A DNA stretch of 64,000 bases. Source: a candidate division WOR-3 bacterium (GTDB lineage: Bacteria; Hydrothermota; Tepidihabitantia; Tepidihabitantales; CAIPLT01). The translations under genes and the position numbers were made by a program. Below are positions 9,896 to 63,641 of this stretch, one piece after another. Positions within the stretch are counted from its first letter, which is position 1, and the number at the start of each line of letters is the position of its first letter. The DNA lies in the NCBI GenBank assembly GCA_026418155.1, contig JAOABV010000001.1, positions 457 to 64,456 of the forward strand, read 5' to 3'. The notes below the pieces were generated by a model that was given only the letters and a program-made list of their open reading frames with translations, made no database searches and was not told the DNA's origin.

Positions 9896-10552
9896 ATGAT
9901 GTTATTAGATATGAAATTGTTGGCATTAAAAAAATCGTTAATCGATTATGCGACGCTGGTTGAGCATATGATTGATAAAGTAATGACCGGACTCCTGAAA
10001 AAAGAGAAATCCCTATTACAAGAACTGATTGATAAGGATGAACCCAAAACCAACCAATTAGAATTAGAAGTAGAAGAACTTGGTACTAATCTTATTGCCC
10101 AATATGAACCTAAGGCGAAAGACTTAAGAATTGTCTTGATGGTTCTGAAAATTAATAATGATTTAGAACGAATCGGTGACCATTTAGTTAATATTGCTGA
10201 AAGCGCTTTATATCTAATCGAACGACCACAGGTTAAACCTTTAATTGATATTCCGAAAATGGCTGATTTAGTAATTAAGATGCTCAAAGATAGTATCACG
10301 GCATTTGTCAATGAGGATGCAAAATTAGCCCAATCAGTATGTGAACAGGATTCAGTGGTCGATAGTTTATTAGAACAAGTGATTCGCGAATTGATAACTT
10401 ATATGACCTCGGACCCGAAAACGATTGAGCGCTCGTTGCATTTAATTCGGATTGCCCATAATCTGGAGCGCATTGCTGACCTCTCAACTAATATCAGCGA
10501 GGATGTGATATTTATTGTTGAAGGACGGGTAATTAAACACCATAAAATGTGA
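9896..10552 (+). CDS. phoU: phosphate signalling regulator PhoU
   Basis: Two PhoU repeats (...DLERIGDHLVNIAE... / ...NLERIADLSTNISE...). Confidence 0.9.
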   Translation: MMLLDMKLLALKKSLIDYATLVEHMIDKVMTGLLKKEKSLLQELIDKDEPKTNQLELEVEELGTNLIAQYEPKAKDLRIVLMVLKINNDLERIGDHLVNIAESALYLIERPQVKPLIDIPKMADLVIKMLKDSITAFVNEDAKLAQSVCEQDSVVDSLLEQVIRELITYMTSDPKTIERSLHLIRIAHNLERIADLSTNISEDVIFIVEGRVIKHHKM

Positions 10553-10906: not shown

Positions 10907-11956
10907 TTGTCGAATAGTGCTGAGATTATTATGGGAGGGTATATGAGATTAAGTGTAATTTGTTTATTATTATTTTTTTCTGCCGTCAATGCTAACCCAA
11001 TTATTATAACCTATATTAATGAAATTCAAACCGCACCAGATAATCAAGAAGCAATTGAACTTCATTTAACTCCATATGGATTTTCTTACCCAATAAATAT
11101 TGGCGGTTGGACCATTCAGTCTCGTGCTGGAATGGCAACAATTAATCCAGGAATAATAATTCCTCTTGATGGCTATGTAATTATTAATCGTTCTAACACC
11201 ACAGGGATTTTTCAATTAAACGAGACCATAGATACTATAAGCCTTTACAACAATTTCGGCTGGCTTTCGGACCGAGTTATTTGGCCCTACGACCCAACAA
11301 ATTGGCAAACGATTCCAACACCACCTTATAATGGTAGTGCGTGTCTTTATCGTAGCCCGGCTTGGAGTTCAATGTATTGGGACAGAATTAACTGGTATAT
11401 TGACTCTACTCCAACTATAGGTTTACCCAACGATAATTGGAGTTCAATTTCCGGCACAGTGCTTAATTCCCAAGGTCAGCCACTTATAAATCGTCCAGTA
11501 GAGGCAGATGGTCCTACTGGCGGAATGACTTGTTTAACTGATTCTAATGGAAATTATACTATTGCGGGTTTAGGCCAAGGCAAGTATTGGATAACAGTCT
11601 GGAACTCTTCTAATCAACCAGCAGGTAGCTATCCGGATTCGGTCTATGTCGGATATAGTCAAAATGTTTCGGGCATAAATATAACAATACCAACGATGAG
11701 TATTAAAAAAGAAGACTCTTATTTAGCCCAATCTCTTCTGTTTTCTATTCCTAATCCCATAAAAAGTAATTCTTTGATTTCTTTGCCCTTAAAGAAAAAT
11801 CTTGTTGGAAAAATCTATGATGCGAAAGGCATTTTAGTTAAAACAATACCCAATAATCAAAACCAATTCGAATTGAATCTTTCTTCGGGAATCTATTTTC
11901 TTAAGATTAATTCCGGAAAACAAACTTTTACTCGCAAGATTATCTCAATAAAGTAG
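10907..11956 (+). CDS. secreted T9SS cargo protein with N-terminal lamin-tail-like domain and carboxypeptidase-regulatory-like domain; probable start ATG 10943
   Basis: Signal peptide MRLSVICLLLFFSAVNA; LTD-like ITYINEIQTAPDNQEAIELH...GGWTIQ; C-terminal ...GIYFLKINSGKQTFTRKIISIK sorting-domain signature. Confidence 0.6.
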   Translation: MSNSAEIIMGGYMRLSVICLLLFFSAVNANPIIITYINEIQTAPDNQEAIELHLTPYGFSYPINIGGWTIQSRAGMATINPGIIIPLDGYVIINRSNTTGIFQLNETIDTISLYNNFGWLSDRVIWPYDPTNWQTIPTPPYNGSACLYRSPAWSSMYWDRINWYIDSTPTIGLPNDNWSSISGTVLNSQGQPLINRPVEADGPTGGMTCLTDSNGNYTIAGLGQGKYWITVWNSSNQPAGSYPDSVYVGYSQNVSGINITIPTMSIKKEDSYLAQSLLFSIPNPIKSNSLISLPLKKNLVGKIYDAKGILVKTIPNNQNQFELNLSSGIYFLKINSGKQTFTRKIISIK

Positions 11957-31471: not shown

Positions 31472-31777
31472 ATGCAAAATATACCCCTTATCAATTATAA
31501 AGAATTAAGAAAAATCAACCCACAAAACGCCAGTCAATCTGTAATCGAATATCTTAAATCCACCGGTAATAATATCTCTCATACCGCAAAAGCATTCGGC
31601 ATCAACCGCTCTGTAGTCTATGATATTATTGATAAATTCCGCCAAGGCAACTTAAAAGACCGTCCTAAAACACCTCTTCATCAACTAAGAAAAACAGATC
31701 CGGAAATCGAAACTAAAGTAGTCGCAATGAAAACTAAAATCCATCTCGGACCAAAAAGACTCTCCAGATATCTGTAA
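31472..31777 (+). CDS. IS transposase N-terminal HTH segment (orfA)
   Basis: HTH ...ISHTAKAFGINRSVVYDIIDKFRQ... Confidence 0.6.
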   Translation: MQNIPLINYKELRKINPQNASQSVIEYLKSTGNNISHTAKAFGINRSVVYDIIDKFRQGNLKDRPKTPLHQLRKTDPEIETKVVAMKTKIHLGPKRLSRYL

Positions 31778-32564
31778 TGTCTCCGCCAGGACAATCCGAC
31801 ACATCTTGCGAAGACATCAAGCCCAAATTAAAGAACTTATCCGTTCGAAGAAAAGAAAGAAGGAGAAAAGAGAATGTGTTGACTGGTATTCAGCCAAACC
31901 TTTTGAGATTGTCCAAATTGATGTCAAACACATCCGTGACCAAAAAGCCTTAACCATCGAGCAGATTATCCATCTTGATACTTTTAAGATACCTAATTAT
32001 CAGTGGAGTGCGTTGGATGTGAACTCGCGTTTTAAGTTGATTGCTTATTCGCAAGAGAAGTCCTGGATCAACGGGTTATTTTTTTATTTTTGGGTGATAT
32101 CGTGGTTACGCTCGCATAGGGTGAAGTGTCAGATTATCTTTACGGTGGATAATGGTGAAGAATTTGGTGGTCGGTCGTGGTTAAAAGTAAAAGAGTTGCG
32201 GAAATTACTGATTGGTTTTGGTTGTCGGTTGGTTCAGAATCACAAAGGGCATCCGGAAGAGAGCGCCCATTTAGAACGGTCGCATCGGACCGATGATGAA
32301 GAGTTCTATATTCCGAGAGTGTTTAAAATCAAATCCGAAGCCGAGCTTCTGACTGAAGGGTTAAGATACAATTACTATTACAACAATTATCGGGAGCATT
32401 CAGCACTTGACTTTAAGACACCATTTGAGTATCTTAAAGAGCAGATGCCGGATATTGATGATAATATTCGTAAGGTTGTACCGATAATGTTAGATAAAGT
32501 AGCGGTAGAATTAGGTCCTTGGAGTGGATACCATGTCTTGGCGCCGCACCGAAAATGTATGTAG
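31731..32564 (+). pseudogene. IS transposase DDE (rve integrase-core) segment (orfB), in the +1 frame relative to orfA; frameshifted or disrupted
   Basis: D (IVQIDVKH), D (FTVDNGEEF), E (LERSHRTDDEEFY), ...YNNYREHSALDFKTP; frames overlap 31731-31777 around CCAAAAAG (31751-31758). Confidence 0.55.
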
Positions 32565-42892: not shown

Positions 42893-43819
42893 TTAAAATC
42901 TTCCTAATAAGTAGAGCAAGATGGCTCGTTGGATATGAAGACGATTTTCCGCTTGGTCTAAAACAATTGAATGTGGTCCGTCAATCACATCGTCTGTAAT
43001 CTCTTCCCCTCGATGTGCCGGTAAACAATGCATTACCCAATAAACATCTGGTGCATAAGACAAAAGTTGTCGATTGACTTGAAATTTCTTAAAAATTCTT
43101 TGTCTTTTTTCCGACTCAGATTCCTGTCCCATAGAAACCCAAGTATCCGTATAAATAAATTCACTTTCCGCAACCGCAGATTCTGGTTCATTAAAGAGTT
43201 CAATTTTACTGCCACTGGTTTTAGCCAATTCTAAAGTTTTAGTTAAAATTGATGGGTTTGGCCCGTATTCTTTGGGTGTTGCGATTTTTAAGTGAACGCC
43301 TAAAAGCGCTGATGCCAGCATTAAAGAATGGCAAACATTGTTACCATCACCAACCCAAGCAATTTTTATATCTTGCAACTTACCAATTTTATCATAGATA
43401 GTTAAAAAATCGGCTAAAACTTGACAAGGATGCTCTAAATCAGAAAGCGCGTTAATAACCGGTACCGTGCTGAATTTACCTAATTCCACTACGGTATTAT
43501 GACTAAAAGTTCGAGCGCTAATCACATTTACCCATCGGCTAAGATTTCTGGCAACATCCGCCACTGACTCGCGTTTTCCTAAACCAATATCGGTAGGTCC
43601 CAAATAAATTGCTGAACCACCTAATTGACGAATCGCAACTTCAAATGTAACTCGTGTTCTTAAGGACGGTTTCTCAAAAACTAAAGCCAATATTTTTCCT
43701 TCTAAATACGGTAAAGTTGGTTCAAACTTTAGTTCGTCCCTTAAATCGATTGCCTTAAAGATTAGTTTTTGAATTGTATCTTTTGATAAATCTAAAATAC
43801 TTATTAAATCTTTTTTCAT
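42893..43819 (-). CDS. argF: ornithine carbamoyltransferase
   Basis: STRTR carbamoyl-phosphate motif, HCLPA, DTWVSMG ornithine-binding motif. Confidence 0.85.
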   Translation of the reverse strand: MKKDLISILDLSKDTIQKLIFKAIDLRDELKFEPTLPYLEGKILALVFEKPSLRTRVTFEVAIRQLGGSAIYLGPTDIGLGKRESVADVARNLSRWVNVISARTFSHNTVVELGKFSTVPVINALSDLEHPCQVLADFLTIYDKIGKLQDIKIAWVGDGNNVCHSLMLASALLGVHLKIATPKEYGPNPSILTKTLELAKTSGSKIELFNEPESAVAESEFIYTDTWVSMGQESESEKRQRIFKKFQVNRQLLSYAPDVYWVMHCLPAHRGEEITDDVIDGPHSIVLDQAENRLHIQRAILLYLLGRF

Positions 43820-49015: not shown

Positions 49016-50155
49016 TTGATTTTACAGCACTTGTTATTTCTTCTGCCTATTTTTATAATCGGCCAGCCTTTACAAAATCGGATACTTGTGGCAACCTCTG
49101 CTGATGGTCTTACATTTCATAAACTAAATATGATTTTTTGCGATTCGGCTGATGTGCCTGATGCTATAATTGGTCCGAATAACTCGGTCTATCTTTTTTA
49201 TCAAGGACTCATAACTCATTGGTCTGATGGTATTAAAGTGGCAATTTCTAATAATGGCATAAATAATTGGCAACACTATCAAGTTATAATTCCTGGCACA
49301 GAGAACTGGCCCGGAAAGCCTTGCGACCCTGATGTGATTATGTTTGGAGATACTTTTAGATTATATTTTACTGGTGACCCAATTAATGATATGCAACCAG
49401 AAACTTATTCTGCATTCTCATTAGACGGTATTCATTTCAATTTGGAAAACGGTATCAGATTTCAAGTTGCGGGTTTTCCTGTGCTTGACCCTACTTTATT
49501 ATGGACCAATGGAACTTTACAATATTTTGCTGGTGGTGCACCGGCAAATTTTAATTGGCACGCCCATTCTACTAATGGCTTACAATTTGTTCAGCAATCT
49601 AATTTTAATATCAATAACCTGATGATGGCAAATGGTATTTCTGCAATTACCAGTGGTTATCGTTTTTATTGTTTTAGCAACAATCCCAATGACCGTAATA
49701 TTAGGTCTATTTATTCTTCTGATGGAGAGAACTGGATACTTGAAAATGGATTTCGGCTTCAACACGACTCAACCAATCCTTTAGAATATCTTTATGTTAA
49801 AGACCCAGCAATCGTTTATAAAGATAGTTGCTATATTATGTATTATGTTACGCGCAAGCGACCAAATTGTCTTGAAGAAACGCCAGACAATTCTCAAAAA
49901 ATAATTATCTATCCTAACCCATTTTCAATTACAGTTCAAATTCGGTTAGGTTGTGACATAAAAAATATTAATATTTATGATAAAACCGGCAGGTTAATTA
50001 AATCGTTTGGGTCTGAACACTACATCTATTGGAACGGAAGAGATAATTATAATAGAATAGTTCAATCTGGTATCTATTTTCTTGGTTTTGAAAAGAAAGG
50101 AAAAAAATTTGTTAGGAAAATAATAAAAATAGATAAAATATATTTTGATGAATGA
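49016..50155 (+). CDS. secreted T9SS cargo protein, beta-propeller glycoside-hydrolase-like (GH43/32/130-type fold guess); TTG start, upstream ATG 48975 out of frame
   Basis: Signal-like N-terminus; repeated aromatic/Gly blades; C-terminal ...GIYFLGFEKKGKKFVRKIIKI sorting-domain signature. Confidence 0.55.
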   Translation: MILQHLLFLLPIFIIGQPLQNRILVATSADGLTFHKLNMIFCDSADVPDAIIGPNNSVYLFYQGLITHWSDGIKVAISNNGINNWQHYQVIIPGTENWPGKPCDPDVIMFGDTFRLYFTGDPINDMQPETYSAFSLDGIHFNLENGIRFQVAGFPVLDPTLLWTNGTLQYFAGGAPANFNWHAHSTNGLQFVQQSNFNINNLMMANGISAITSGYRFYCFSNNPNDRNIRSIYSSDGENWILENGFRLQHDSTNPLEYLYVKDPAIVYKDSCYIMYYVTRKRPNCLEETPDNSQKIIIYPNPFSITVQIRLGCDIKNINIYDKTGRLIKSFGSEHYIYWNGRDNYNRIVQSGIYFLGFEKKGKKFVRKIIKIDKIYFDE

Positions 50156-52039: not shown

Positions 52040-52306
52040 TAAATAAAATCTGTTTTAAGGTTTAACAAGGTAGAGCAATTAAAAATATATAATTTTAATA
52101 ATATTATTAAGATAAAAACTATTATTATTTATTATGTGGATAACTAAAGAATACCTAAAATACATAATAAACATATATAAACTTAATCCACATCCGATAA
52201 AATCTTTTTTGTTATTTGTGGATAAGAAAGATCAAACAGACAAATTTACTTTCTTTGTAGTGGATAATTACTACATTTTCAACAAGTTTTCCACAACTTA
52301 TCCACC
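52040..52306. other. oriC part 1: DnaA-box cluster downstream of dnaA
   Basis: TGTGGATAA 52136-44, AATCCACA 52185-92, TGTGGATAA 52218-26, AGTGGATAA 52259-67, TTTTCCACA 52287-95, TTATCCACC 52298-306. Confidence 0.7.
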
Positions 52307-53665
52307 GTTTATTAACATTAGAACCTTTTGAATTTTTTGGGCAATATCCGGGTTTGATTTTTTAAGTTCTGTTATTTTTTCAATAGCGTGAATGACTGTA
52401 GAATGGTCCTTACCACCAAAAATTGACCCGATTTCTTTAAGCGACATTCCTAATAAGGTGCGTAAAAGATACATTGCAACCTGCCTGCCTAAAGCCAAAT
52501 TCGCAGTCCGCTCTTTAGATTGCAACTGTTCAACAGTAACCCCAAATTGTTTCGCAACTACATCAATGATTTTCAATGGCTTAGGTTTTTCATAGGTGAT
52601 ATGTAGGTCTGAAAGAACCTGTTTACAGACATCTAAGGTTAGCGGAGTATTGGTTAAGGATGCGTAGCCGGCTAAGCGAATCAAACAGCCTTCTAATTCC
52701 CGGATATTGGTTTTTATGTTTTCTGCGATAAAGTAGATGATTTCCGGGTCAATGTTTATCGATTCAGTTTTGGCTTTATTATTTAGAATGGCAATCCTTG
52801 TTTCTAAATCTGGTGGTTTTAAGTCGCAGACTAAACCTGACAATAACCGTGAAACTAAACGCTCTTCTAAGGTAGGAATTTCTCGAGGCGGTCGGTCTGA
52901 GGTGAAAACAATCTGTTTACCCATTCCCTGAAGGTAATTAAAGAGATGAAAGACTTCTTCTTGTAACCGTTCTTTGCCTTTAAGATAGTGAATATCATCA
53001 ATTAATAATAAATCTAAGTTGCGGTATTTATTATTAAAGGCGAATTGGTTTCTTTCTTGGATTGATTGGATAAGGTCTAAAAAGAAGAGTTCTGCGGGCG
53101 TGTAGCAAATCTTTGCTTGGGGATTGTTATTTTTGACATAATTGCCAATAGCGTGCAAAAGGTGAGTTTTACCTAATCCCACTCCGCCATAGATAAATAG
53201 TGGATTATAAGTTTTGGCAGGTGCTGTTGCTACTGCTTTACAAGCAGCATAAGCAAATCGGTTCGATTCTCCGATAATAAAATTATCAAAGGTATATCGC
53301 TCAATAAGTCGTGATTGATTGGTAAGTCGATTTGAGGTCTGATTATGAGTAGAGATATGTTTGGCTGCTGTAGTATTATTGGAATAAGTATTTTCTGTGT
53401 TGGTCGATTCAGGCGAAGACTCTTCAGGTATTACTGTGAAATTTATCTTTAGATTTAATTGAGTAAGAACCTGAGATAAAGCATTTGAATAATATTCAGA
53501 AATCCATTCAATAAAGAATTGATTTGGAGCTCCAACTTCTAAAGAACCGTCATCAAGATTAAGTGGTCTTAAAGGACGAAACCAAGCAGTAATCGCATCT
53601 TGATTAATTAATTCACTCAGACCGGAAATAATTTTTGACCAGACTTGCTCTTTCAATTCGCTCAT
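52298..53665 (-). CDS. dnaA: chromosomal replication initiator DnaA
   Basis: AAA+ ...GGVGLGKTHLLHAIGN..., ...LLIDDIH..., C-terminal HTH ...SKERTANLALGRQVAMYL... Confidence 0.95.
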   Translation of the reverse strand: MSELKEQVWSKIISGLSELINQDAITAWFRPLRPLNLDDGSLEVGAPNQFFIEWISEYYSNALSQVLTQLNLKINFTVIPEESSPESTNTENTYSNNTTAAKHISTHNQTSNRLTNQSRLIERYTFDNFIIGESNRFAYAACKAVATAPAKTYNPLFIYGGVGLGKTHLLHAIGNYVKNNNPQAKICYTPAELFFLDLIQSIQERNQFAFNNKYRNLDLLLIDDIHYLKGKERLQEEVFHLFNYLQGMGKQIVFTSDRPPREIPTLEERLVSRLLSGLVCDLKPPDLETRIAILNNKAKTESINIDPEIIYFIAENIKTNIRELEGCLIRLAGYASLTNTPLTLDVCKQVLSDLHITYEKPKPLKIIDVVAKQFGVTVEQLQSKERTANLALGRQVAMYLLRTLLGMSLKEIGSIFGGKDHSTVIHAIEKITELKKSNPDIAQKIQKVLMLINGG

Positions 53666-54100
53666 CGACTACTTATCCACTTCATAAAAAGTTTTCCACA
53701 AAGTTTTCCACAAAACTTAATTTTATAAATGTTTGTAAAATAAAAACTTACCATAAACAAGCTAATTTTTCCACAAATCTATAATAATAATTTTTAATAA
53801 ATTAACTAATTCTCGTCAACAACTTTCTGTATCGCGCAAATGCTCGCATCAATTTTATTAAAGTTTAGAGTTAAGTCAAGATATTTTTTAATTTTGGGAG
53901 TAAAAAATTTTTTCTGTTGCCAAAACCTATTTTGGGAATTGAAAGAATAAATTCGGTTGTTTAATTTTGTCTCTATTTTTTCAATTAATTTTGTGTCTAT
54001 TTTTTCAATTGGTTCTACTTGGGAAAAGAATATATATGACTTTTCTCTGCTCTCATTTTAAGATATTTAATTAAACCTTGTCTGATTAATCGAGAATTTT
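53666..54100. other. oriC part 2: DnaA boxes plus AT-rich unwinding region upstream of dnaA
   Basis: TTATCCACT 53672-80, TTTTCCACA at 53692, 53704, 53767; >85% AT stretch 53740-53830. Confidence 0.65.
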
Positions 54101-54110
54101 GGGTGCGGAC

Positions 54111-56639
54111 CTAAATCTTTTTACCAGCGACTACAGCTTGACCTAATGCAATTCCACCGTCATTGATTGGAACGGTTCGATTAAAATAGACATCAAATCC
54201 GGAGTTTTCAAGCAAGGAGACAATGCCGTTAAGAATTATTCGATTCTGAAAGACTCCGCCCGCAAGACAGACCTGAGATATTTTTGTTTGTTGAGATATT
54301 TTTTTTACGACTTCAACTGAAGTTTGAATCACCCATTGATGAAATAGATAGGACAACCTATTAGTTTCAACCCCTGAATCTCTTTGTTTAATGAGAAATT
54401 CAAAAATTGGTTTTGGTTCAATTATAAAAGTATCATATTGATAAACATCGTGGCTTGGTAAAGAACCTTTATTAGATTGTCTTATTAAATTTTCTTTAGG
54501 GTTATTTAAACTCAGCGCTGGTTGATAAATTTGTTTTGAGCGCGAGTCAATACGGTTATTAACTAATGAAATCGAATTTTGAATTATCTCATATCTTATT
54601 CTTTCTTTTGTTTTAGTGCTGGATGCAAAATTTATTGCTTCGGCCTCTAAACTTATCGGCGCCTCGGCTTCGTAAGTTTGTAAGGAGCAAGTGCCCAACA
54701 GATAAGCGACTGCATCAAATAGCCGTGCAAAACTTGATGTGAATATTTGATTATGAGTAAAAACCTTAGGTCTTTTTTTTAATAACTCTAATTCAATAAG
54801 ATATGCTTCACAGATCATTTTCGGATTGGTAATTGCGCTATCACCACCAATCAGGGGTAAATATCGTAAATGTGCTAAGCGCTGGTAGTTTTGATAACTG
54901 ACCAACATAAATTCACTGCCCCAAATATTACCATCAGGACCAAATCCAGTTCCATCAAAACTTAAGCCGATAACCGGAGGTTTTAGATTATGCTCAGCCA
55001 TAACGCTCACAAGATGGGCAAAATGATGCTGGATTTTTAATAAAGGAATTTTGTGTTTTTCAGCAAATGCTTCAGCCAATCGAAAAGAAACATAATTTGG
55101 ATGTAAATCACACGCGACAATCTCAGGCTTAATACTAAACCACTTCTGATACTTTGTTAGCATCTCCCAAAAGAAATCGATGCTCTCATTAGAACCAAAA
55201 TCGCCAATATAAGGACTTAAGTAGACTTTTTTATCTTCACCTAAAGCAAAACAATTCTTTAAGTCAGAACCGAATGCCAAAACTGGTTTTAGATTAACAT
55301 TTTTTAGTTCAATCGGTGAAGGCACATAACCCCTTGAGCGCCTTATTAAAATTTGCCCCTGATAATTAAATACTACAGAATCATCGCACCGGGATTCAAT
55401 TTTACGATTATGGTCAAGAATATAATCAACACATTTAGAAAGACGATTTTTTATATCTATAGCATTTGTGATAATCGGTGCATCTTTAGGGTTAGCACTG
55501 GTCATTACTAGTACTTTTAATTGACCAGAAGTTTTTTTTATAGTTTTATGCTTGTTATTGCCGAATGTTTCATGTGAAACATTTTTAGTCTCAAATAATA
55601 GTTTATGTAGTGGTGTATATGGTAACATTATGCCTAAATAAGCATTATTGGGCGCAACAGATTCTGCTATTTTTAATTTAGGATTTAGGCGCTTTTTTAG
55701 AAGCACGATTGGTGCAATATTAGATTTCAGCAAATTTTCTTCTTCTTTGTTAATAGTGCATAATTGCTTTATAGTCTTAATGTCTTTGCACATTAAGGCA
55801 AAAGGTTTTCGGGGTCGATTTTTTCTTTTTCTTAGTCTTCGGACTGCGGATTCATTTTGAGCATCAACTGCTAAAAGAAAACCGCCAATAGATTTTATAC
55901 ATAGTATTTTTCCTTGGTTTAATAATGAGACTGCCTTTTTAATAATTTCTTGGGAGTTTGCTTTTTTAATACCGAGAAGTTTGATTTTTTCTTGGCTTAG
56001 TAATGAGATTTCGTTTTTAATAATCTTTTGGCTGTTTTCTTTTTTAATCGTAAGTGGTTGGGAAATCGGGCTTAGGGTAAGATGGGGTCCACAGATATGG
56101 CAGGCATTAGGTTGGGCGTGGAATCTTCGGTCCTGAGGATTTTTATACTCTTTTTCGCAATCCGGACACATCTTAAACATAGCCATTGTCGTTCGAGGTC
56201 GGTCATAAGGGGTATCTAAGATTATGGAATACCTTGGTCCGCATTGCGTGCAGTTAGTAAAAGGATAATAAAACCGACGGTTTTTAGGCATTAGGATTTC
56301 AGCAATACATTCCTGGCAGATTGCTAAATCAGGCATTATGGAGACAGCACAGATATTGTTTTTAGTTTTAGGTTGACTGGCAACAATAGTAAAATCTGTA
56401 TAGATTTTTGTATTGATTGATTTTACAATAATGCTGTCAATTTTGGCTAATTTAGGCGGCGAGGTTTTTAGGATACTTAAAAATTTTCGGCTATTTTTTC
56501 CTTGGCAGAAAATTAAGACACCTTGTTTTGTGTTTTTGACTATACCACTAAGATTTAATTTTTTAGCAACATTATAAACATAGGGTCTAAAACCAATACC
56601 TTGAACCTGTCCTTTAACTAAAATTGAGAGAGTTTTCAT
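54111..56639 (-). CDS. hypF: [NiFe]-hydrogenase maturation carbamoyltransferase HypF
   Basis: Acylphosphatase N-terminus (VKGQVQGIGFRPYVYN), two C-x2-C-x18-C-x2-C zinc fingers, YrdC-like and Kae1/YgjD-like C-terminal domains. Confidence 0.85.
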   Translation of the reverse strand: MKTLSILVKGQVQGIGFRPYVYNVAKKLNLSGIVKNTKQGVLIFCQGKNSRKFLSILKTSPPKLAKIDSIIVKSINTKIYTDFTIVASQPKTKNNICAVSIMPDLAICQECIAEILMPKNRRFYYPFTNCTQCGPRYSIILDTPYDRPRTTMAMFKMCPDCEKEYKNPQDRRFHAQPNACHICGPHLTLSPISQPLTIKKENSQKIIKNEISLLSQEKIKLLGIKKANSQEIIKKAVSLLNQGKILCIKSIGGFLLAVDAQNESAVRRLRKRKNRPRKPFALMCKDIKTIKQLCTINKEEENLLKSNIAPIVLLKKRLNPKLKIAESVAPNNAYLGIMLPYTPLHKLLFETKNVSHETFGNNKHKTIKKTSGQLKVLVMTSANPKDAPIITNAIDIKNRLSKCVDYILDHNRKIESRCDDSVVFNYQGQILIRRSRGYVPSPIELKNVNLKPVLAFGSDLKNCFALGEDKKVYLSPYIGDFGSNESIDFFWEMLTKYQKWFSIKPEIVACDLHPNYVSFRLAEAFAEKHKIPLLKIQHHFAHLVSVMAEHNLKPPVIGLSFDGTGFGPDGNIWGSEFMLVSYQNYQRLAHLRYLPLIGGDSAITNPKMICEAYLIELELLKKRPKVFTHNQIFTSSFARLFDAVAYLLGTCSLQTYEAEAPISLEAEAINFASSTKTKERIRYEIIQNSISLVNNRIDSRSKQIYQPALSLNNPKENLIRQSNKGSLPSHDVYQYDTFIIEPKPIFEFLIKQRDSGVETNRLSYLFHQWVIQTSVEVVKKISQQTKISQVCLAGGVFQNRIILNGIVSLLENSGFDVYFNRTVPINDGGIALGQAVVAGKKI

Positions 56640-56689
56640 TTGAGAATAGAGTAGTTGTTCGCTAAAAGAATGCTTTTAATTCTTGGATT

Positions 56690-56830
56690 AGGTGTGATTT
56701 GATTCTTGTGTTTTGATTTGAAGTCTTCAAAGTTTGGGAGAACGGTCACAAAACCGTTCTTCTCCAAAAGGTGAGCAATTTTATTCTTATGTTTTGATTT
56801 GAAGTCCTCAAAGAGTAAGTCCTTGGTGGC
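56690..56830. repeat. 2 x ~62-bp tandem repeat with central GGAGAACGG/CCGTTCTTCTCC hairpin; the overlapping 90-aa ORF (56636..56908) is probably a repeat artefact
   Basis: ttcttgtgttttgatttgaagtcttcaaag / ttcttatgttttgatttgaagtcctcaaag. Confidence 0.6.
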
Positions 56831-56864
56831 AATAATGCGAAACCGGGTTAGGTATATTTTATTC

Positions 56865-58121
56865 TTAGGTTTTAAGTGGTTTTTTTTGGGCTGCAGGAAA
56901 CAAGACATTGTTTAATATTAGTCGATAGCCAGGAGAGTTTTTATGCAATTCTAAATTAGTCTGAGGGTCGCCAATGCGATGTGCGAAATCTTCAGGGTCA
57001 TGACCACCTAAAAAAGTAAATGTGCCTTTACCAAATTTTCCGTGGATGTATTTAACTTCTTCGGTATTAGGAACTTCACCTAATATCAAGACATTTTTCT
57101 TTATTTTATCTCGCCGGAATCCGCAGTTTTGTCCCAGAAATTCTTTGACCAAAGCAACATGGTTTTGAACCAGCATTGTTGGAACTGGGTCATACTTAGC
57201 CGAAAAATCGAAGAGCGAGAAGTAGACATTTGGTCCCCGAGCCGAAGATTCAATATAGGTATCAATATCAGAATGTTCATAGACATAAGGGTCAATGACG
57301 ACAGTGAAATTTTCAAATGCCAAACAGTTAGCATAATTGAGTTTAGACATATAATTAGGGTCAACCGGGTCGCCATCAAACTCCTTAGGAACGATGTCTG
57401 TATTTTCTGCGGCCAAAGCGATATCAGGAGTATCAGTCGAAGAACACATTGCAAAGACCATCCCACCATCTTCTATATACTTTTTAATCTCTTTTACTAC
57501 TGCCAATTTTAATTTAGATACTTTTTTGAATCCCAATGACTTAGCCATAGCAGTATTCAATATAACATCTTCTTGATACCAGTCGGCATGTCCGTGTCCT
57601 GCGAGAAATTTGCCATATTGTCCAGTAAAGTCTTCGTGGTGTAGGTGAAGCCAGTCGTATTCTTTTAATTTGCCTTGGAGCACTTCTTTATCCCAGATGC
57701 GGTCATAAGGTATCTTGGCGTATTCTAAGGCTAGTCTTACTGCGTCGTCCCAGGGCTCGTGATTTGGTGGCACATAGACCGCAATTTTGGGTGCTTTTTC
57801 TAAAAGCATTGCGTCCATATTCTCTTTTTCAATTGTCTGTCTAATGGTTATTTCTTGGCTGGGAGAGATTACTTCATAACGAACACCCCGAAGATTGCAA
57901 AGTTTTCTAATTGCTGGATTGTCAGCCATCAGAAACGAACCGCCTCGATAATTCAATAACCACTCAACATTTTCACCTGCTAAAAGACAATTATACGCAA
58001 TTCCATAAGCCATTAAATGGTCGGTTTGAGTCAAGTCCATAGGAATCAATATCTTAGCATGGGTAAAAGTAAAAGAAAGAAAGGTTGAGAAAAGAAGGAT
58101 TAATTTAGTGGTTCTGTGCAT
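56865..58121 (-). CDS. hypothetical secreted protein (signal peptide; His-rich HLHHEDF...GHGHADWY segment)
   Basis: ORF + signal peptide MHRTTKLILLFSTFLSFTFTHA. Confidence 0.55.
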   Translation of the reverse strand: MHRTTKLILLFSTFLSFTFTHAKILIPMDLTQTDHLMAYGIAYNCLLAGENVEWLLNYRGGSFLMADNPAIRKLCNLRGVRYEVISPSQEITIRQTIEKENMDAMLLEKAPKIAVYVPPNHEPWDDAVRLALEYAKIPYDRIWDKEVLQGKLKEYDWLHLHHEDFTGQYGKFLAGHGHADWYQEDVILNTAMAKSLGFKKVSKLKLAVVKEIKKYIEDGGMVFAMCSSTDTPDIALAAENTDIVPKEFDGDPVDPNYMSKLNYANCLAFENFTVVIDPYVYEHSDIDTYIESSARGPNVYFSLFDFSAKYDPVPTMLVQNHVALVKEFLGQNCGFRRDKIKKNVLILGEVPNTEEVKYIHGKFGKGTFTFLGGHDPEDFAHRIGDPQTNLELHKNSPGYRLILNNVLFPAAQKKPLKT

Positions 58122-58325
58122 ATTTTAGCTTGTGTCTCATTATTATAGTAATTATAGTAATTGTTTTGTTGGTTCTGTTTGTATTTTAGCCTTGTGTTTA
58201 TTCTCATTGTATTGTTTTGTTGGTTCTGTTTATATTTTAGTCTTGTGTCACATTATTGTAGTAATTGTTTTTATTGGTTCTGTTTGTATTTTAGCCTTGT
58301 GTTTCATTATCTGTAGTAACATTTA
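58108..58325. repeat. 3.5 x ~60-bp tandem repeat that includes the start-codon region of the 56865..58121 gene (copies have lost the ATG)
   Basis: ggttctgt(gca/ttg)tattttagc.ttgtgt.t.att... x4; ORF 58132..58329 is a repeat artefact. Confidence 0.8.
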
Positions 58326-58404
58326 TTAATTCTATTCGTATCTTATCTCAATTTTATTCGTATCTTATTACAGCATTAATCGTCCTACCGATTAATTATT
58401 AGTG

Positions 58405-59394
58405 CTATTCGTATACAATCCGTGTGCCGATAGTGTTGTTGGTTAATGCAGTGGCAATATTGCTCGGGTTGGTAATAATACCAAATCGAGAACGGTCCTT
58501 TTCAATAAACTTAATTAATGCTTGGATTTTCGGCTTCATACTGCCTTCAGCAAAATGTCCTTGATTTAAATATTCAATTGCTTGCTTTAAGTTTATGGTA
58601 TTTAATGGGATTTGATTGTTGGTATTGAAGTTGAGATAGACTTTATCAATGCTTGTTGATATGATGAGGCAGTTAGCGTCGATTAAATCGGCTAAGAGTG
58701 CTGAAGTTAGGTCTTTATCAATTACTGCGGGTATTGGTTTAAGGTGATTGTTTTCTTGAATTACCGGAATACCGCCGCCACCAGCAGCGATTACGATATG
58801 GTTGTCTTCGATTAAAGATTTTATAATGTTGATTTCAACAATTGATTTTGGTTTGGGAGATGCGACCATTCGGCGAAAACCTCTGCCAGCGTCTTCTTTC
58901 ATAATCCAGTTTCGTTCTGCTTGTAATGCAAAGGCTTCTTTTTGGGAATAAAACGGACCAACGGGTTTTGTGTAATTAGAGAAACCGGGGTCATCTTTAT
59001 CTACTAAGACTTGAGTAATAACAGTGACAATATTAAAAGGACATTTGCATTTAGTTGATTCGTTTTTCAGATTGGGTTGAATCATATCCTTGTGTTTAGC
59101 CAATTCGTTTTTCAGGCTGAGTTGAATCATATAACCAATTTCTGCCTGAGTTAGCGCCGTAGCAATTTCTAAAGGAATTTCTGGTAAGTGGTTGCGGGTT
59201 AAATAAGAACGAATTAATGCAGTTCCTACTTGGGGTCCATTGCCATGGGTTATGACTACCTGATTGTGATGACAGACAATTTCAGCAATATTGGCACAGG
59301 TTTCCTGCACAGTTTCAAACTGGTCAAAGAAAGACGGTGGTTTATTACCATTGCGGAGCAAAGAATTACCGCCGATAGCAATTACAATGCGCAT
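58405..59394 (-). CDS. arcC: carbamate kinase family protein
   Basis: MRIVIAIGGNSLL... amino-acid-kinase fold, ~310-330 aa; ...VITHGNGPQVG..., ...IAAGGGGIPV... Confidence 0.75.
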   Translation of the reverse strand: MRIVIAIGGNSLLRNGNKPPSFFDQFETVQETCANIAEIVCHHNQVVITHGNGPQVGTALIRSYLTRNHLPEIPLEIATALTQAEIGYMIQLSLKNELAKHKDMIQPNLKNESTKCKCPFNIVTVITQVLVDKDDPGFSNYTKPVGPFYSQKEAFALQAERNWIMKEDAGRGFRRMVASPKPKSIVEINIIKSLIEDNHIVIAAGGGGIPVIQENNHLKPIPAVIDKDLTSALLADLIDANCLIISTSIDKVYLNFNTNNQIPLNTINLKQAIEYLNQGHFAEGSMKPKIQALIKFIEKDRSRFGIITNPSNIATALTNNTIGTRIVYE

Positions 59395-59697
59395 ATGCGT
59401 TTAGCCCTTCTTTAAAAGTGATATTCACAGGTGTTTGTCGCTTTCATATAAAATTTTAAGCAATATATTGATTAATGTCAAGACAGTAAGATACCAGCAA
59501 AGATGCTGGCAGTATCGAGTCTTCTGAAAAAGTAATTTTCTGCTAATGACCAAAGAGTAATATGAGAGTATTGCAAAAGTTTTCAATAAGACAGCAACAC
59601 CTTTTTTCGCCATTTTATACTTGTAGTATGAGAGTATTGCAAGCATCCTTTCTTCCAATAAGAGCATTTTTCACTATTTCGTTCTTTTCGGATTTTT

Positions 59698-59890
59698 TCC
59701 GAACTTTAATGTAATTGATAACTTTTTCTTCAACCTATGATGTTCTTATGCCGAACTTTTCCCTATAATGTAATTGATACCTTTTTTCTTCAACCTATAA
59801 TGTTCTTATGCATAACTTTTCCCTATAATGTAATTGACAACTCTTTTCTTCAACCTATAATGTTCTTATGCTGAAACTTAATAATCAGGA
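59698..59890 (+). repeat. 3 x ~60-bp tandem repeat, each unit with a TATAAT -10-like hexamer; the last unit contains the selA ATG
   Basis: (aatgtaattga.a.ct.tttcttcaacctat.atgttcttatgc..aactttt ccctat) x3; cttatgccgaac / cttatgcataac / cttATGctgaaac. Confidence 0.8.
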
Positions 59891-61274
59891 AGTGTTAAAA
59901 AACATTCCATCGGTTGATAAGATTCTTAACTGGCAGGATGTTAAGGTGTTTGAAAAGAAAATTAAGACTTCTTATTTAACTGAGATTGTTCGGTATAAGA
60001 CTGATGAGTTTAGACAAAAACTACTTGGAGGTGAAAGACTTAGTCCTGACGATTTGAAACAGATGGTCGTCGCAGAACTAAAATTCCTGACCGAACGATA
60101 TTTTACTTATGCGATTAATGCCTTAGGAGTTATTCTCCATACTGGATTGGGCCGGGCTCCTTTTGCTCAAGGCATTGACAAGATTCTGCAAGATGTTAGT
60201 CAGGCTTATGCTCGGTTACAGATTGATGACGAAGGTAAACGCGATGACCGGTATAAAAAGATTAGTAAACTGCTTAGAGTCTTAACAGGTTGTGAAGCAG
60301 GAATTATCGTTAATAATAATGCCGGGGCGACGCTTTTGGTCCTATCCGCAATCGCCAAAGGAAAAGAGGTTGTGGTCTCCCGCGGTCAATTAATTGAAAT
60401 TGGTGGTTCTTTTCGCCTGCCTGAAATTATGGCACAATCTGGTTGTATTCTCCGGGAAGTCGGCACAACTAACCGCACACATCTTAAAGATTATGAACAA
60501 GTTATCAATGAGAACACCGGCGCAATTTTAAGAGTTCATCAATCTAATTATCGGATTATCGGTTTTACCTCTGAGGTCCCTTTAGCCGAATTGGTGTCTT
60601 TGGGAAAAAAGTATCAGGTTCCGGTAATTGATGATTTGGGTAGTGGTGCTTTAATTGATTTCTCTAAATACGGTTTACCCAAAGAGCCAATGGCACAAGA
60701 AAGTATTGCGCTTGGTGCCGATATTGTCTGTTTTAGCGGTGATAAATTGATTGGCGGACCACAATGCGGTATCATTATTGGCAAAAAAGCCTATCTGGAA
60801 AAGATTAAAAAGCATCCTTTAACTCGGGCACTAAGGTGTGATAAATTAACTAACGCGGTTTTAGAAGCAACCTTACAAAAGTTTTTACTACCAGAAGAAG
60901 ATTTGATTAATGAACATACTGTGTATCAACTTATGCTGAAACCATTAAATGAAATCAAAAGACAGGCGAATTGGTTCGCACGGAAATTAAAAAAGGAACA
61001 CAGTTCTCAATTGACCTGTGAAGTAAAACCATCACATAGTGAAATTGGTGGTGGTTCGTTAAGCACCGAACAACTACCAACTTTTGTAGTCATAATAAAA
61101 CCGAACAATCTCTCATCCCAAGATTTAGCCAAAAGACTTCGGCAATACCAACCACCAATCTTTGGTCGGATTCACGAAGATTCATTAATCCTTGATTTTA
61201 GAACCGTGCTGAAAGGCGAAGAAAAAATAATTTTACAAGCATTGCAAGAAAACTTAAAGAGTAATGATAAATAA
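59868..61274 (+). CDS. selA: L-seryl-tRNA(Sec) selenium transferase
   Basis: PLP lysine context ...CFSGDKLIGGPQCGIIIGKK... (cf. E. coli FSGDKLLGGPQAGIIVGKK); 468 aa. Confidence 0.9.
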   Translation: MLKLNNQEVLKNIPSVDKILNWQDVKVFEKKIKTSYLTEIVRYKTDEFRQKLLGGERLSPDDLKQMVVAELKFLTERYFTYAINALGVILHTGLGRAPFAQGIDKILQDVSQAYARLQIDDEGKRDDRYKKISKLLRVLTGCEAGIIVNNNAGATLLVLSAIAKGKEVVVSRGQLIEIGGSFRLPEIMAQSGCILREVGTTNRTHLKDYEQVINENTGAILRVHQSNYRIIGFTSEVPLAELVSLGKKYQVPVIDDLGSGALIDFSKYGLPKEPMAQESIALGADIVCFSGDKLIGGPQCGIIIGKKAYLEKIKKHPLTRALRCDKLTNAVLEATLQKFLLPEEDLINEHTVYQLMLKPLNEIKRQANWFARKLKKEHSSQLTCEVKPSHSEIGGGSLSTEQLPTFVVIIKPNNLSSQDLAKRLRQYQPPIFGRIHEDSLILDFRTVLKGEEKIILQALQENLKSNDK

Positions 61275-61379: not shown

Positions 61380-63392
61380 ATGTCTAATACTAAAAAACGG
61401 CATATAGTTATTGGCACTGCTGGTCATATTGACCATGGTAAAAGTGCTTTAATCAAAGCATTAACCGGAGTTGACCCTGACAGATTAAAAGAAGAAAAAG
61501 AACGGGGGATGACCACAGATTTAGGATTCGTTTTTTATGGTGATAATGCCACGCTCATCGATGTCCCGGGTCATGAAAAATTTGTCCGTCATATGGTTGC
61601 TGGTGCGTCAACGATAGATATCGTGCTATTGGTGATTGCTGCTGATGATGGCATTATGCCACAAACCCGAGAACACCTTGAGATATTGAAACTTTTAGGT
61701 ATTAAAAAGGGTGTTGTCGTCATCACCAAAAAAGATTTAGTCAGCACAGAACGCTTACAAATTGTTATTGAAGAAATTAAAAATTTAGTTAAAGACTCTT
61801 TTCTAAAAAAAGCGCCCGTAATTGCAGTTTCTAATGTCACAAAAGAAGGAATCAATGAATTAAAGAGCCTGCTGGATAGATTGATTGCAGAAACCGAAAG
61901 TAAAATTGACCAAGGTATTTTTCGCATGCCCATTGACCGTTGTTTTACCATCAAAGGTTTTGGTACAGTTGTTGCTGGCACAGTCTTGTCCGGGAAAATA
62001 AAAGTAGGCGATGAAGTTGAAGTTCTTCCCCAAAAGCGAAAAGTCAAAATTAGAAGAATTGAAGTCCATAATAAACCAGTAGATGAAGTCAGCACAGGTT
62101 TTCGGGCGGCAATCAATCTTATTGGTGTGGAAAAAGACGAGATTAACCGCGGGGATGTCTTAAGCCAAATCGGTTTTTTCCATCCTTCACTATTTCTCAA
62201 TGCGTCGCTCTATCTTCTGCCTAATGCCGAAAGACCATTAAAAAACTTTGAACGAGTAAGAATTCATTTAGGCACTAAAGAAGTTTTAGGTCGGGTAGTT
62301 ATTTTAGGTAAAAAAGAGATTTCAGCAAAACTACCCCTTTCCGAGAAAACAAATACTCAAGGCACGGATATGACAAAAAGGATACTTTTACCTAAAGAAA
62401 AGGCATTGGTTCAGTTTCGATTGGAAGAACCAGTAGTAACAAATATCAATGACCGATATGTCATCCGAACCTATTCGCCCCAAACGACCATCGGTGGCGG
62501 TATAATTCTTGACCCTAAAGCAACTAAAGTCAAAGGATATGACGAAGAACTGCTAACTCATTTAGCCCGCACCGAATCAGGTGAACCTATTGATTTAGTT
62601 GAAGAAGATTTATTATGCAATTTTCAAATAGCCAAAAAGCCGACAGAAATTGCTCAAGATATAAATCTACCGGTTAACGAAGTTATAGAATTATTAAAAC
62701 AACTCGTGCAACAGAAAAAAGTGCTCTGTTTAGATGAAAATAGAGCGTTGAATTACCATTCCCAAAACTTATTTTATCATTCCCAAAATGCCGAAAAATT
62801 GCAACAACAAATAATTGAGAAAATAAAAGAATACCATCAGCAAAACCCCACAAGCATTGGCATAACTCCATTAGCATTATTAAAGACAGTGAGTGTCGGA
62901 TTAGATAAAATACTTTTAGATTGGGCAATAGACCAATTACAGACCCAAGGAAAAATTCAGGTCTCTTCAGAACAGAAAATTCGTCTATCCGATTTCAAAA
63001 TGGTGGTGGAAAAAAATATTGCCGAATATGTCGAAAAAATTGAAAAACTACTCTTATCTTGTGGATATGAACCGCTCACATTTAGTGAAATAAAAAGCAA
63101 AATTAGCGGAAAAGAGACCGAAATAAAACAAAGTTATCAATATCTACTTGACCAAAAGATTTTAATAAACATTGGCGAAGGGCTAGTCTTACATCAAAAA
63201 TATATAAAACAAGCCGAAATAATATTGGTTGATTTCTTAAAGAAAAATGGTTCAATCCGAGTATCCCAATTTAGAGATTTACTCAAAGCCAGCCGAAGAA
63301 CCGCTTTGCCACTACTAATCTTTTTTGACAACAAAGGCATCACAATCCGAAAAGATGATATAAGAGTGCTGTCAAAAAAATTTAAAGATTAA
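61380..63392 (+). CDS. selB: selenocysteine-specific translation elongation factor SelB
   Basis: N-terminal GTPase ...[38 protein letters not shown]...; three to four C-terminal winged-helix domains; 670 aa. Confidence 0.9.
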
Positions 63393-63547
63393 ATTCATAC
63401 AGAGAGACTAAAAATATTAAGTCTTGTAACAGCCGATGGCGACAGTAAAACTAAACCCAGAAATATTTTTGCTTAATTTTTATGATCTGGTTTTTGATTT
63501 CAATTAAAATGAAGAGGACCGCTATTTAATTTTTATATTAAATCAAT

Positions 63548-63641
63548 GGCGGAGGCGTGTAGGAATCGAACCTACCGTTCTTCTTTCGAAGAACACCTGG
63601 ATTTGAAGTCCAGTAGGCACACCAGCACCTATCCGCCTCCA
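63548..63641 (-). tRNA. selC: tRNA-Sec (anticodon UCA), selC
   Basis: Reverse complement GGAGGCGG-ATAGGTGCTGGTGTGCCTA-CTGGACTTCAAATCCAG-GTGTTCTTCGAAAGAAGAACG-GTAGGTTCGATTCCTAC-ACGCCTCC-G-CCA; anticodon arm identical to E. coli selC; 8-nt acceptor strands, long variable arm, encoded CCA. Confidence 0.85.

Follow-up and report, generated by a model that had tools for sequence, protein, structure and literature searches.

HypF, the carbamoyltransferase of [NiFe]-hydrogenase maturation, cleaves carbamoyl phosphate (CP) in its acylphosphatase domain, makes carbamoyl-AMP, and carbamoylates HypE, and is in this way the source of the two cyanide ligands of the active site (PMC6022934). The need for CP in the assembly of [NiFe] centers goes back to Paschos 2001 and Reissmann 2003 (both cited in PMC13260591). 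Where this CP comes from is settled only for Escherichia coli, which uses CarAB, and, since 2026, for Thermococcus kodakarensis, which draws on arginine via ArcE/ArcB and not on carbamate kinase (CK). The anabolic operation of CK in vivo has been debated since the work on the "CK-like CP synthetase" of Pyrococcus. Here, we analyze a stretch of 64,000 nucleotides (nt) from a candidate division WOR-3 bacterium (GenBank assembly GCA_026418155.1, contig JAOABV010000001.1, positions 457 to 64,456), referred to below as the window, in which a carbamate kinase gene lies two genes upstream of hypF on the same strand. The linkage between CK and hyp genes is real and conserved in WOR-3, and it is apparently undescribed. 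Whether CK makes the CP used by HypF is, in our estimate, an even question.

The cluster runs from 59.4 down to 52.3 kb on the minus strand of the window and reads, in the order of transcription, CK, X, hypF, and dnaA. The CK gene (58405..59394, 329 amino acids) comes first, followed by a 418-residue gene, here called X (56865..58121), by hypF (54111..56639, 842 residues), and by dnaA (52298..53665, assigned by a profile match), which is the conserved downstream neighbor of hypF across WOR-3. An earlier interpretation of this DNA, made without database searches and referred to here as the sequence-only reading, had placed CK, X, and hypF at these coordinates and on a common strand, and all three genes are found as placed.

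The HypF protein has the complete domain order, with the Pfam families Acylphosphatase (PF00708), zf-HYPF (PF07503, in two stretches), Sua5_yciO_yrdC (PF01300), HypF_C (PF17788), and HypF_C_2 (PF22521) following one another, in agreement with the acylphosphatase, Zn-finger, YrdC, and Kae1 domains recognized by the sequence-only reading. Its score against TIGR00143 is 689.6 bits, above the equivalog cutoff of 466.1, and the translation shows the GxVQGxGFR acylphosphatase loop, four CxxC motifs, and the HHFAH motif. The acylphosphatase domain, which holds the CP-binding site, is intact. With 842 residues the protein is longer than its relatives (746-799 residues), and it carries two lineage-specific insertions. 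One of them (residues 210-235, window positions 55935-56012) resembles a partial duplication of the neighboring helix ahead of the YrdC domain, and the other (residues 684-723, 54471-54590) lies within the Kae1-like domain.

The kinase matches AA_kinase (PF00696) and scores 332.2 bits against the subfamily model NF009007, "carbamate kinase", above its cutoff of 266, while its 343.9 bits against the stricter arcC equivalog TIGR00746 are slightly below the cutoff of 358.25. The nearest solved relative is the CK of Pyrococcus furiosus (PDB 1E19, E = 1.6e-74, 254 bits), followed by that of Enterococcus faecalis (PDB 1B7B, E = 3.4e-63). Residues 2-326 align to the solved carbamate kinases, with the THGNGPQVG, GGGGIPV, and IDKD stretches in register. 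Judged by these matches, the window kinase is a genuine carbamate kinase.

To place the arrangement in its phylogenetic context, the surroundings of X, HypF, and CK homologues from genomes and metagenomes were mapped for CK, X, HypF, HypC, DUF89, and ornithine carbamoyltransferase (OTC). CK is located directly upstream of X in all of the WOR-3 loci, at least 24 in number, and the two genes usually overlap by 4-8 nt (8 nt in L001 and 4 nt in L003 and L170; also in L004). The full order CK-X-hypF-dnaA is present in seven distinct WOR-3 genomes (the window, L001/L002, L003, L006, L007, L008, and L170), the HypF proteins of the relatives being 47-65% identical to that of the window. The X/hypF gap is only 1-12 nt in L003, L006, and L170 (3 nt in L003, 1 nt in L170), and the junctions of the cluster in the relatives are mostly gaps or overlaps of 1-8 nt. 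In eleven genomes of a sister subclade, CK-X is followed by hypC, either with a DUF89 gene in between (L004/L005, L011, L013, L017, L018, L091, and L172) or without it (L012, L014, L015, and L077), and the HypC proteins all begin with the canonical MCLAIP-type N-terminus. Altogether, a hyp gene is found within two genes after CK-X in 18 of the 23 distinct CK-X genomes whose sequence reaches far enough downstream. The CK-X-hypF arrangement is no chance product, since it recurs in related genomes; the sequence-only reading had suggested synteny as a check on its idea, and both the seven genomes and the sister lineages bear it out.

The hyp genes downstream of CK-X also form units of their own. 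The hypF-dnaA adjacency is seen in L001, L003, L006, L007, L170, and L086-L088, and is without CK-X in the last three, which are more distant WOR-3 genomes, while DUF89-hypC is without CK-X in the complete genome L171. The CK-X/hypF and CK-X/hypC neighborhoods are therefore separate juxtapositions in different lineages. The sequence-only reading had called hypF an orphan, and the gene is indeed positionally alone, not contiguous with other hyp genes as in a canonical hyp operon and flanked instead by X and dnaA; its adjacency to dnaA is, however, the normal WOR-3 arrangement. In a neighbor-joining tree of the kinases, the X-linked CKs form their own clade, within which the hypF-type loci make up a single monophyletic branch.

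A control was provided by a metagenome scan of 80 CK loci, 78 of which are not of the WOR-3 type. Half of these 78 (39) have an adjacent OTC-like carbamoyltransferase gene, the classical pairing of catabolic CKs, and none has an adjacent hypF or hypC, which makes the WOR-3 arrangement unusual for carbamate kinase. In the window and in all of the WOR-3 relatives (24 loci), CK has neither a carbamoyltransferase nor a deiminase gene as a neighbor. The gene is thus not part of an arcABC-type catabolic cluster, its neighbors being X and a repeat-filled spacer, and the clustering with arcA/arcB genes that the sequence-only reading had named as evidence against its proposal occurs neither in the window nor in the relatives. 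The full window was also surveyed by comparing its ca. 50 open reading frames (ORFs) of at least 100 residues with Pfam or NCBIfam. No further hyp gene, hydrogenase subunit, or deiminase gene was found among them, and a tblastn search of the window with one WOR-3 HypC and one DUF89 protein gave no match, in line with the earlier statement that the window holds no other hyp or hydrogenase genes. [NiFe]-hydrogenases and complete hyp sets are common in WOR-3: a survey of 181 WOR-3 metagenome-assembled genomes reports widespread Mvh-type and sulfhydrogenase-type [NiFe] enzymes with co-occurring hypA-F sets (PMC12542636), and its supplementary tables have no rows for arcC, carA, carB, argF, or pyrB. 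Our full-text literature searches found no report of a CK gene within a hyp cluster; those combining carbamate kinase with HypF or hydrogenase maturation turned up nothing beyond a review on CP, the study on Thermococcus, and genome papers on other subjects.

In the window itself the genes are more loosely packed than in the relatives. The CK-X spacer (58122..58404, 283 nt) holds a 51-nt tandem repeat in 3.2 copies (58151-58319), and the X-hypF spacer (56640..56864, 225 nt) holds a 36-nt direct repeat (56697-56813). The spacers are recent insertions, as seen from the closest relative, L001, whose X is 90% identical: there CK and X overlap (CK ends at 10008 and X starts at 10001), and the CK/X spacer is absent. 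The best sigma-70-like promoter match (TTGACA-17-TAAAAT, 11/12, minus strand, 59453..59481), a consensus match only, lies upstream of CK, with its -10 hexamer ending 59 nt ahead of the CK start codon. This is the strongest promoter-like site of the region, in which the total number of such sites is not above the shuffled expectation. The minus strand from CK to hypF showed no terminator-like hairpin. It is likely, as we infer from these features, that CK, X, and hypF are co-transcribed.

It should be mentioned that three distinct local repeats surround the cluster, the two above and one of 60 nt at 59707-59875. None of the three has further copies in the window, and they create probably spurious ORFs of 80-90 residues. 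A 90-residue ORF (56636-56908) and the 80-residue spacer ORFs were considered as genes and rejected, as they have no family match, are built of repeats, and are absent in the relatives. An Rfam search of the cluster spacers gave nothing relevant.

The reading of the cluster that we favor is that CK, X, and hypF would form one transcription unit, inherited and kept by the WOR-3 lineage, in which CK would run anabolically. Ammonia and CO2 would form carbamate spontaneously, and CK would convert it with ATP into CP. The co-expressed HypF would then take up CP, which its acylphosphatase domain would bind and cleave; the YrdC domain would give carbamoyl-AMP, and the Kae1 domain would carbamoylate HypE, beginning the synthesis of the two cyanide ligands in the cytoplasmic [NiFe]-hydrogenases. 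X, a housekeeping protein that the FCB group exports, would be a passenger in this unit, to which CK became translationally coupled. The proposal is put forward because the CK-hypF/hypC neighborhood is conserved, coupled, and repeatedly re-formed, and because no catabolic partner stands beside CK. It is also in line with the intact CP-binding acylphosphatase domain of HypF, with the relationship of the kinase to the P. furiosus enzyme once described as a CK-like CP synthetase, with the promoter-like site ahead of CK and the lack of a terminator-like hairpin behind it, and with the frequency of [NiFe]-hydrogenases and hyp sets in WOR-3. The identities of the genes, their tight and conserved clustering, and the lack of a carbamoyltransferase neighbor are observed directly; co-transcription, the direction of CK, and the delivery of CP are inferred, and we judge the chances that CK makes CP for HypF to be evenly balanced.

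A number of observations weigh against this supply role. On the chemical side, the CK equilibrium lies toward ATP formation (PMC6022934), and in T. kodakarensis, the only genetic test in any organism of CK as a CP source for hydrogenase, deletion of arcC had little effect on hydrogenase-dependent growth, CP being derived from citrulline/arginine via ArcE/ArcB (PMC13260591). The unfavorable equilibrium could be pulled by the irreversible consumption of CP by HypF, given that the demand for CP would be small. On the genomic side, CK-X-DUF89 occurs without an adjacent hyp gene in at least five genomes (L010, L019, L035, L089, and L090), and in the L086/L089 contig hypF is 35 kb away from CK-X. 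Hyp genes likewise do without CK-X, as in the L171 and L086-L088 loci described above. In a search with a WOR-3 HypC profile, none of the best 120 matches is on a known contig of the hypF-type clade. In the window itself, inserted repeats now keep the genes apart at both junctions, by 283 and 225 nt. Furthermore, X is exported (see below) and sits in the middle of the cluster, and a shared operon alone is therefore no proof of a shared pathway.

The window also contains an OTC gene outside the cluster (42893..43819, minus strand), 14.6 kb from CK, with scores of 411.3 bits against NF001986 (cutoff 306) and 396.9 bits against TIGR00658 (cutoff 280.85). This enzyme could make CP from citrulline. 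The sequence-only reading had proposed CK as a dedicated CP source; the conserved linkage of CK to hyp genes is in favor of the idea of a source, while the word "dedicated" is too strong in view of the CK-X-DUF89 loci without a hyp neighbor, of this OTC gene, and of the arcC result in T. kodakarensis.

In an alternative view, CK-X(-DUF89) is a module that serves a separate purpose, unrelated to hydrogenase, and is next to hyp genes only through shared descent and operon packing. CK would in this case be catabolic or would balance CP and ATP, with CP coming from OTC. The coupling of CK to X in every one of the loci, compared to the 18 of 23 in which a hyp gene follows, is consistent with such a module, and so are the deepest branches of the CK tree (L019, L024, and L035), which have CK-X-DUF89 and no hyp gene; the OTC gene and the T. 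kodakarensis genetics point in the same direction. However, two different hyp genes, hypF and hypC, have come to lie directly behind CK-X in separate subclades, hypF-dnaA and DUF89-hypC exist as independent units as well, and no WOR-3 CK locus has the adjacent carbamoyltransferase seen in half of the other CK loci. We consider this alternative possible, though doubtful on the whole.

A different possibility is that CK is the sole or general anabolic source of CP, for pyrimidines and arginine as well as for HypF, in small genomes that would lack carAB, so that it would feed HypF without being dedicated to it. The OTC of the window needs or makes CP, no carAB was found in the window (the sole CPSase_L_D2 match is a biotin carboxylase), and the nearest solved relative of the kinase is the Pyrococcus CK that was once proposed to be a CK-like CP synthetase (PMC6022934). 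A general source would be expected to have pyrimidine or arginine genes as neighbors at least sometimes, whereas CK is always found by X, plus a hyp or DUF89 gene where the downstream sequence is readable. Such a general role appears improbable to us.

The gene between CK and hypF requires separate consideration. X has no Pfam or NCBIfam match, and the sequence-only reading had described its product as an unrecognized, His-rich, secreted protein. It belongs, in fact, to a large and highly conserved family. More than 8000 homologues were scored, of which the best 120 are 65-100% identical to X, and members with at least 57% identity are found in WOR-3, Zixibacteria, Cloacimonadota, Ignavibacteria, Eisenbacteria, Krumholzibacteria, and Bacteroidota. 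Cultured Spirosoma also carries X, with a representative that is ca. 47% identical. In a library of 1.84 billion representatives, the family makes up only ca. 15 full-length clusters at 50% identity, and few exported proteins of the FCB group are as conserved. The NCBI name of X, "asparagine synthetase B", is a misnomer: no match to the expected Ntn-type glutaminase and Asn_synthase domains was obtained and the predicted fold is not that of AsnB, so this assignment was rejected.

The X family is predicted to be extracytoplasmic, because its members have N-terminal signal-like segments and divergent members have type IX sorting domains. In all of the 13 aligned homologues, the N-terminus is a variable hydrophobic segment of the signal type that ends just ahead of the invariant LIPMD start of the fold, and six divergent members of ca. 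500 residues bear the C-terminal sorting domain of type IX secretion (Por_Secre_tail). The window protein ends in KKPLKT and is without this domain. The suggested secretion is therefore supported by the signal-like segments and by the sorting domains of the distant members, while the designation as His-rich is an overstatement, the histidine content being 3.6% compared to 1.7-2.6% in five neighboring proteins, with several of the histidines invariant. Type IX C-terminal sorting domains are also present on two other proteins of the window (10907-11956 and 49016-50155), consistent with an affiliation to the FCB group.

A structure of X was modeled on an alignment of 30 sequences, distant representatives among them; an earlier model from 13 close homologues, with a pLDDT of 58, was set aside. 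The core of the model adopts a class-I glutamine-amidotransferase-like (ThuA-like), flavodoxin-like GATase1 fold. In Foldseek searches, the best TM-score normalized to the X query does not exceed 0.38 and no solved structure covers the protein; the proteins closest in fold are non-catalytic or ThuA-like, and a sequence search against the PDB gave a chance-level match only. Compared to the ThuA-like and class-I GATase-like proteins (PDB 1T0B, 4JQS, 3RHT, and 2GK3), X, with its 418 residues, is enlarged by an N-terminal alpha/beta domain and by a long insertion, is exported, and matches neither the Pfam GATase nor the ThuA model. In the model, Cys226 follows the strand 221-225 and precedes the helix 231-237, a position resembling a nucleophile elbow, and His374, after the strand 366-371, is placed like a catalytic histidine. 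Both residues are conserved in at least 90% of the sequences, while Glu377 falls below 90% in the wider alignment.

These predicted positions suggest a further scenario, in which X itself takes part in the pathway as a Cys-His amidohydrolase that is exported and sets ammonia free on the outer side of the membrane, to be turned with CO2 into carbamate for CK, in the manner of a CP synthetase whose glutaminase and kinase steps are split over two proteins and two compartments. The placement and conservation of Cys226 and His374 and the translational coupling of CK and X would fit such a role. However, CK is a cytoplasmic enzyme whereas X is exported, the closest folds belong to non-catalytic or ThuA-like proteins, and X is equally conserved in Cloacimonadota, Ignavibacteria, Zixibacteria, and Bacteroidota with no CK or hyp genes nearby. 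The scenario is thus very unlikely in our view. Outside the CK-linked WOR-3 clade, the neighbors of X are unrelated genes, among them a PTS EIIA-type gene (by Pfam) and, by sequence reading only, genes for a signal peptidase and for HemW-, HslU-, RarA-, YceD-, and PBP4-like proteins. Two other roles were considered and rejected, that of a cytoplasmic partner of CK, since the X family is exported, and that of a hydrogenase-specific His-rich metal chaperone, since the conservation is equal in lineages and contexts without hyp genes. X is probably a conserved envelope enzyme of unassigned function that is unlikely to take part in any step of cyanide-ligand synthesis.

The DUF89 protein (ARMT1-like, PF01937) is a second companion of the hyp genes. 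Its gene and hypC form a pair, 1 nt apart, in L171 (9091-10288), L172 (9157-10252), and L004 (11260-12364), and the pair occurs both with CK-X upstream (L172 and L004) and without it (L171). The protein could be an undescribed HypC accessory; no link between DUF89 and hydrogenases was found in a full-text literature search. It may also be noted that, in L086 (8804-9943), L087 (8781-9971), and L088 (8818-9975), a polytopic membrane protein of ca. 385 residues is encoded directly upstream of hypF-dnaA. These proteins have no Pfam match and are 42-57% identical to each other. As a more complete picture, it is tentatively conceivable, and rather doubtful, that the WOR-3 [NiFe]-hydrogenases are matured with CP from an anabolic CK encoded in the maturation neighborhood, with DUF89 and perhaps X as accessories that the hyp set has not included to date.

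At the other end of the cluster, the hypF-dnaA spacer (53666..54110) contains three perfect DnaA boxes, TTTTCCACA, at 53692, 53704, and 53767, and two TTATCCACA boxes and one further TTTTCCACA box are located below dnaA (52135-52295). The spacer is probably part of the replication origin (oriC), because DnaA boxes flank dnaA and the GC skew changes sign at ca. 52-54 kb. The position of hypF beside dnaA/oriC is conserved across WOR-3 (L003, L006, L007, L170, and L086-L088). Within the dnaA coding region, positions 53111-53191 weakly match the Rfam family AsdA, an antisense RNA to the dnaA mRNA (35 bits, with a gathering score of 52). The match is probably due to the conserved dnaA sequence and not to an RNA gene.

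On the opposite side of CK, the window contains a selenocysteine insertion set consisting of selA (59868-61274, plus strand), selB (61380-63392, plus strand), and tRNA-Sec (63547-63640, minus strand). The set is complete, and the organism therefore makes selenoproteins. A functional tie of selA/selB to the CK cluster was considered and rejected, as L001, the closest relative, has these genes in another orientation and at another spacing. An insertion-sequence-like element at 31472-32564 consists of two ORFs, the first an HTH_28 gene and the second a gene with an rve_3 integrase core.

Taken one by one, the genes of the cluster are ordinary, and it is the association between CK and hyp genes that appears to be new. 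The WOR-3 cluster is a concrete candidate for hydrogenase maturation fed by CK. If this is true, it would be the first genome-context tie of CK to cyanide-ligand synthesis and a natural counter-example to the finding that CK is dispensable in Thermococcus. The analysis also draws attention to two uncharacterized players, the DUF89 protein tightly paired with hypC and the exported, FCB-wide X family behind the name "asparagine synthetase B".

The comparison with the known systems can be summarized as follows. The arginine deiminase clusters of the arcA-arcB-arcC type contain a kinase of the same enzyme family, and the WOR-3 CK differs from them in having no adjacent carbamoyltransferase or deiminase. 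The CK of Pyrococcus/Thermococcus (1E19), the nearest solved relative, poses the same question of whether CK makes CP anabolically in vivo; the Thermococcus gene is not clustered with hyp genes, while the WOR-3 CK is bacterial and belongs to a hyp-containing cluster. The HypF system of E. coli, with hydN-hypF, hypABCDE, and CP from CarAB, shares the HypF domain architecture of the window. There, too, hypF stands apart from hypCDE, so that a positionally isolated hypF is normal. A carAB mutant of E. coli has active hydrogenase only when citrulline is supplied. In contrast to E. coli, the window has a carbamate kinase gene upstream of hypF and dnaA downstream of it.

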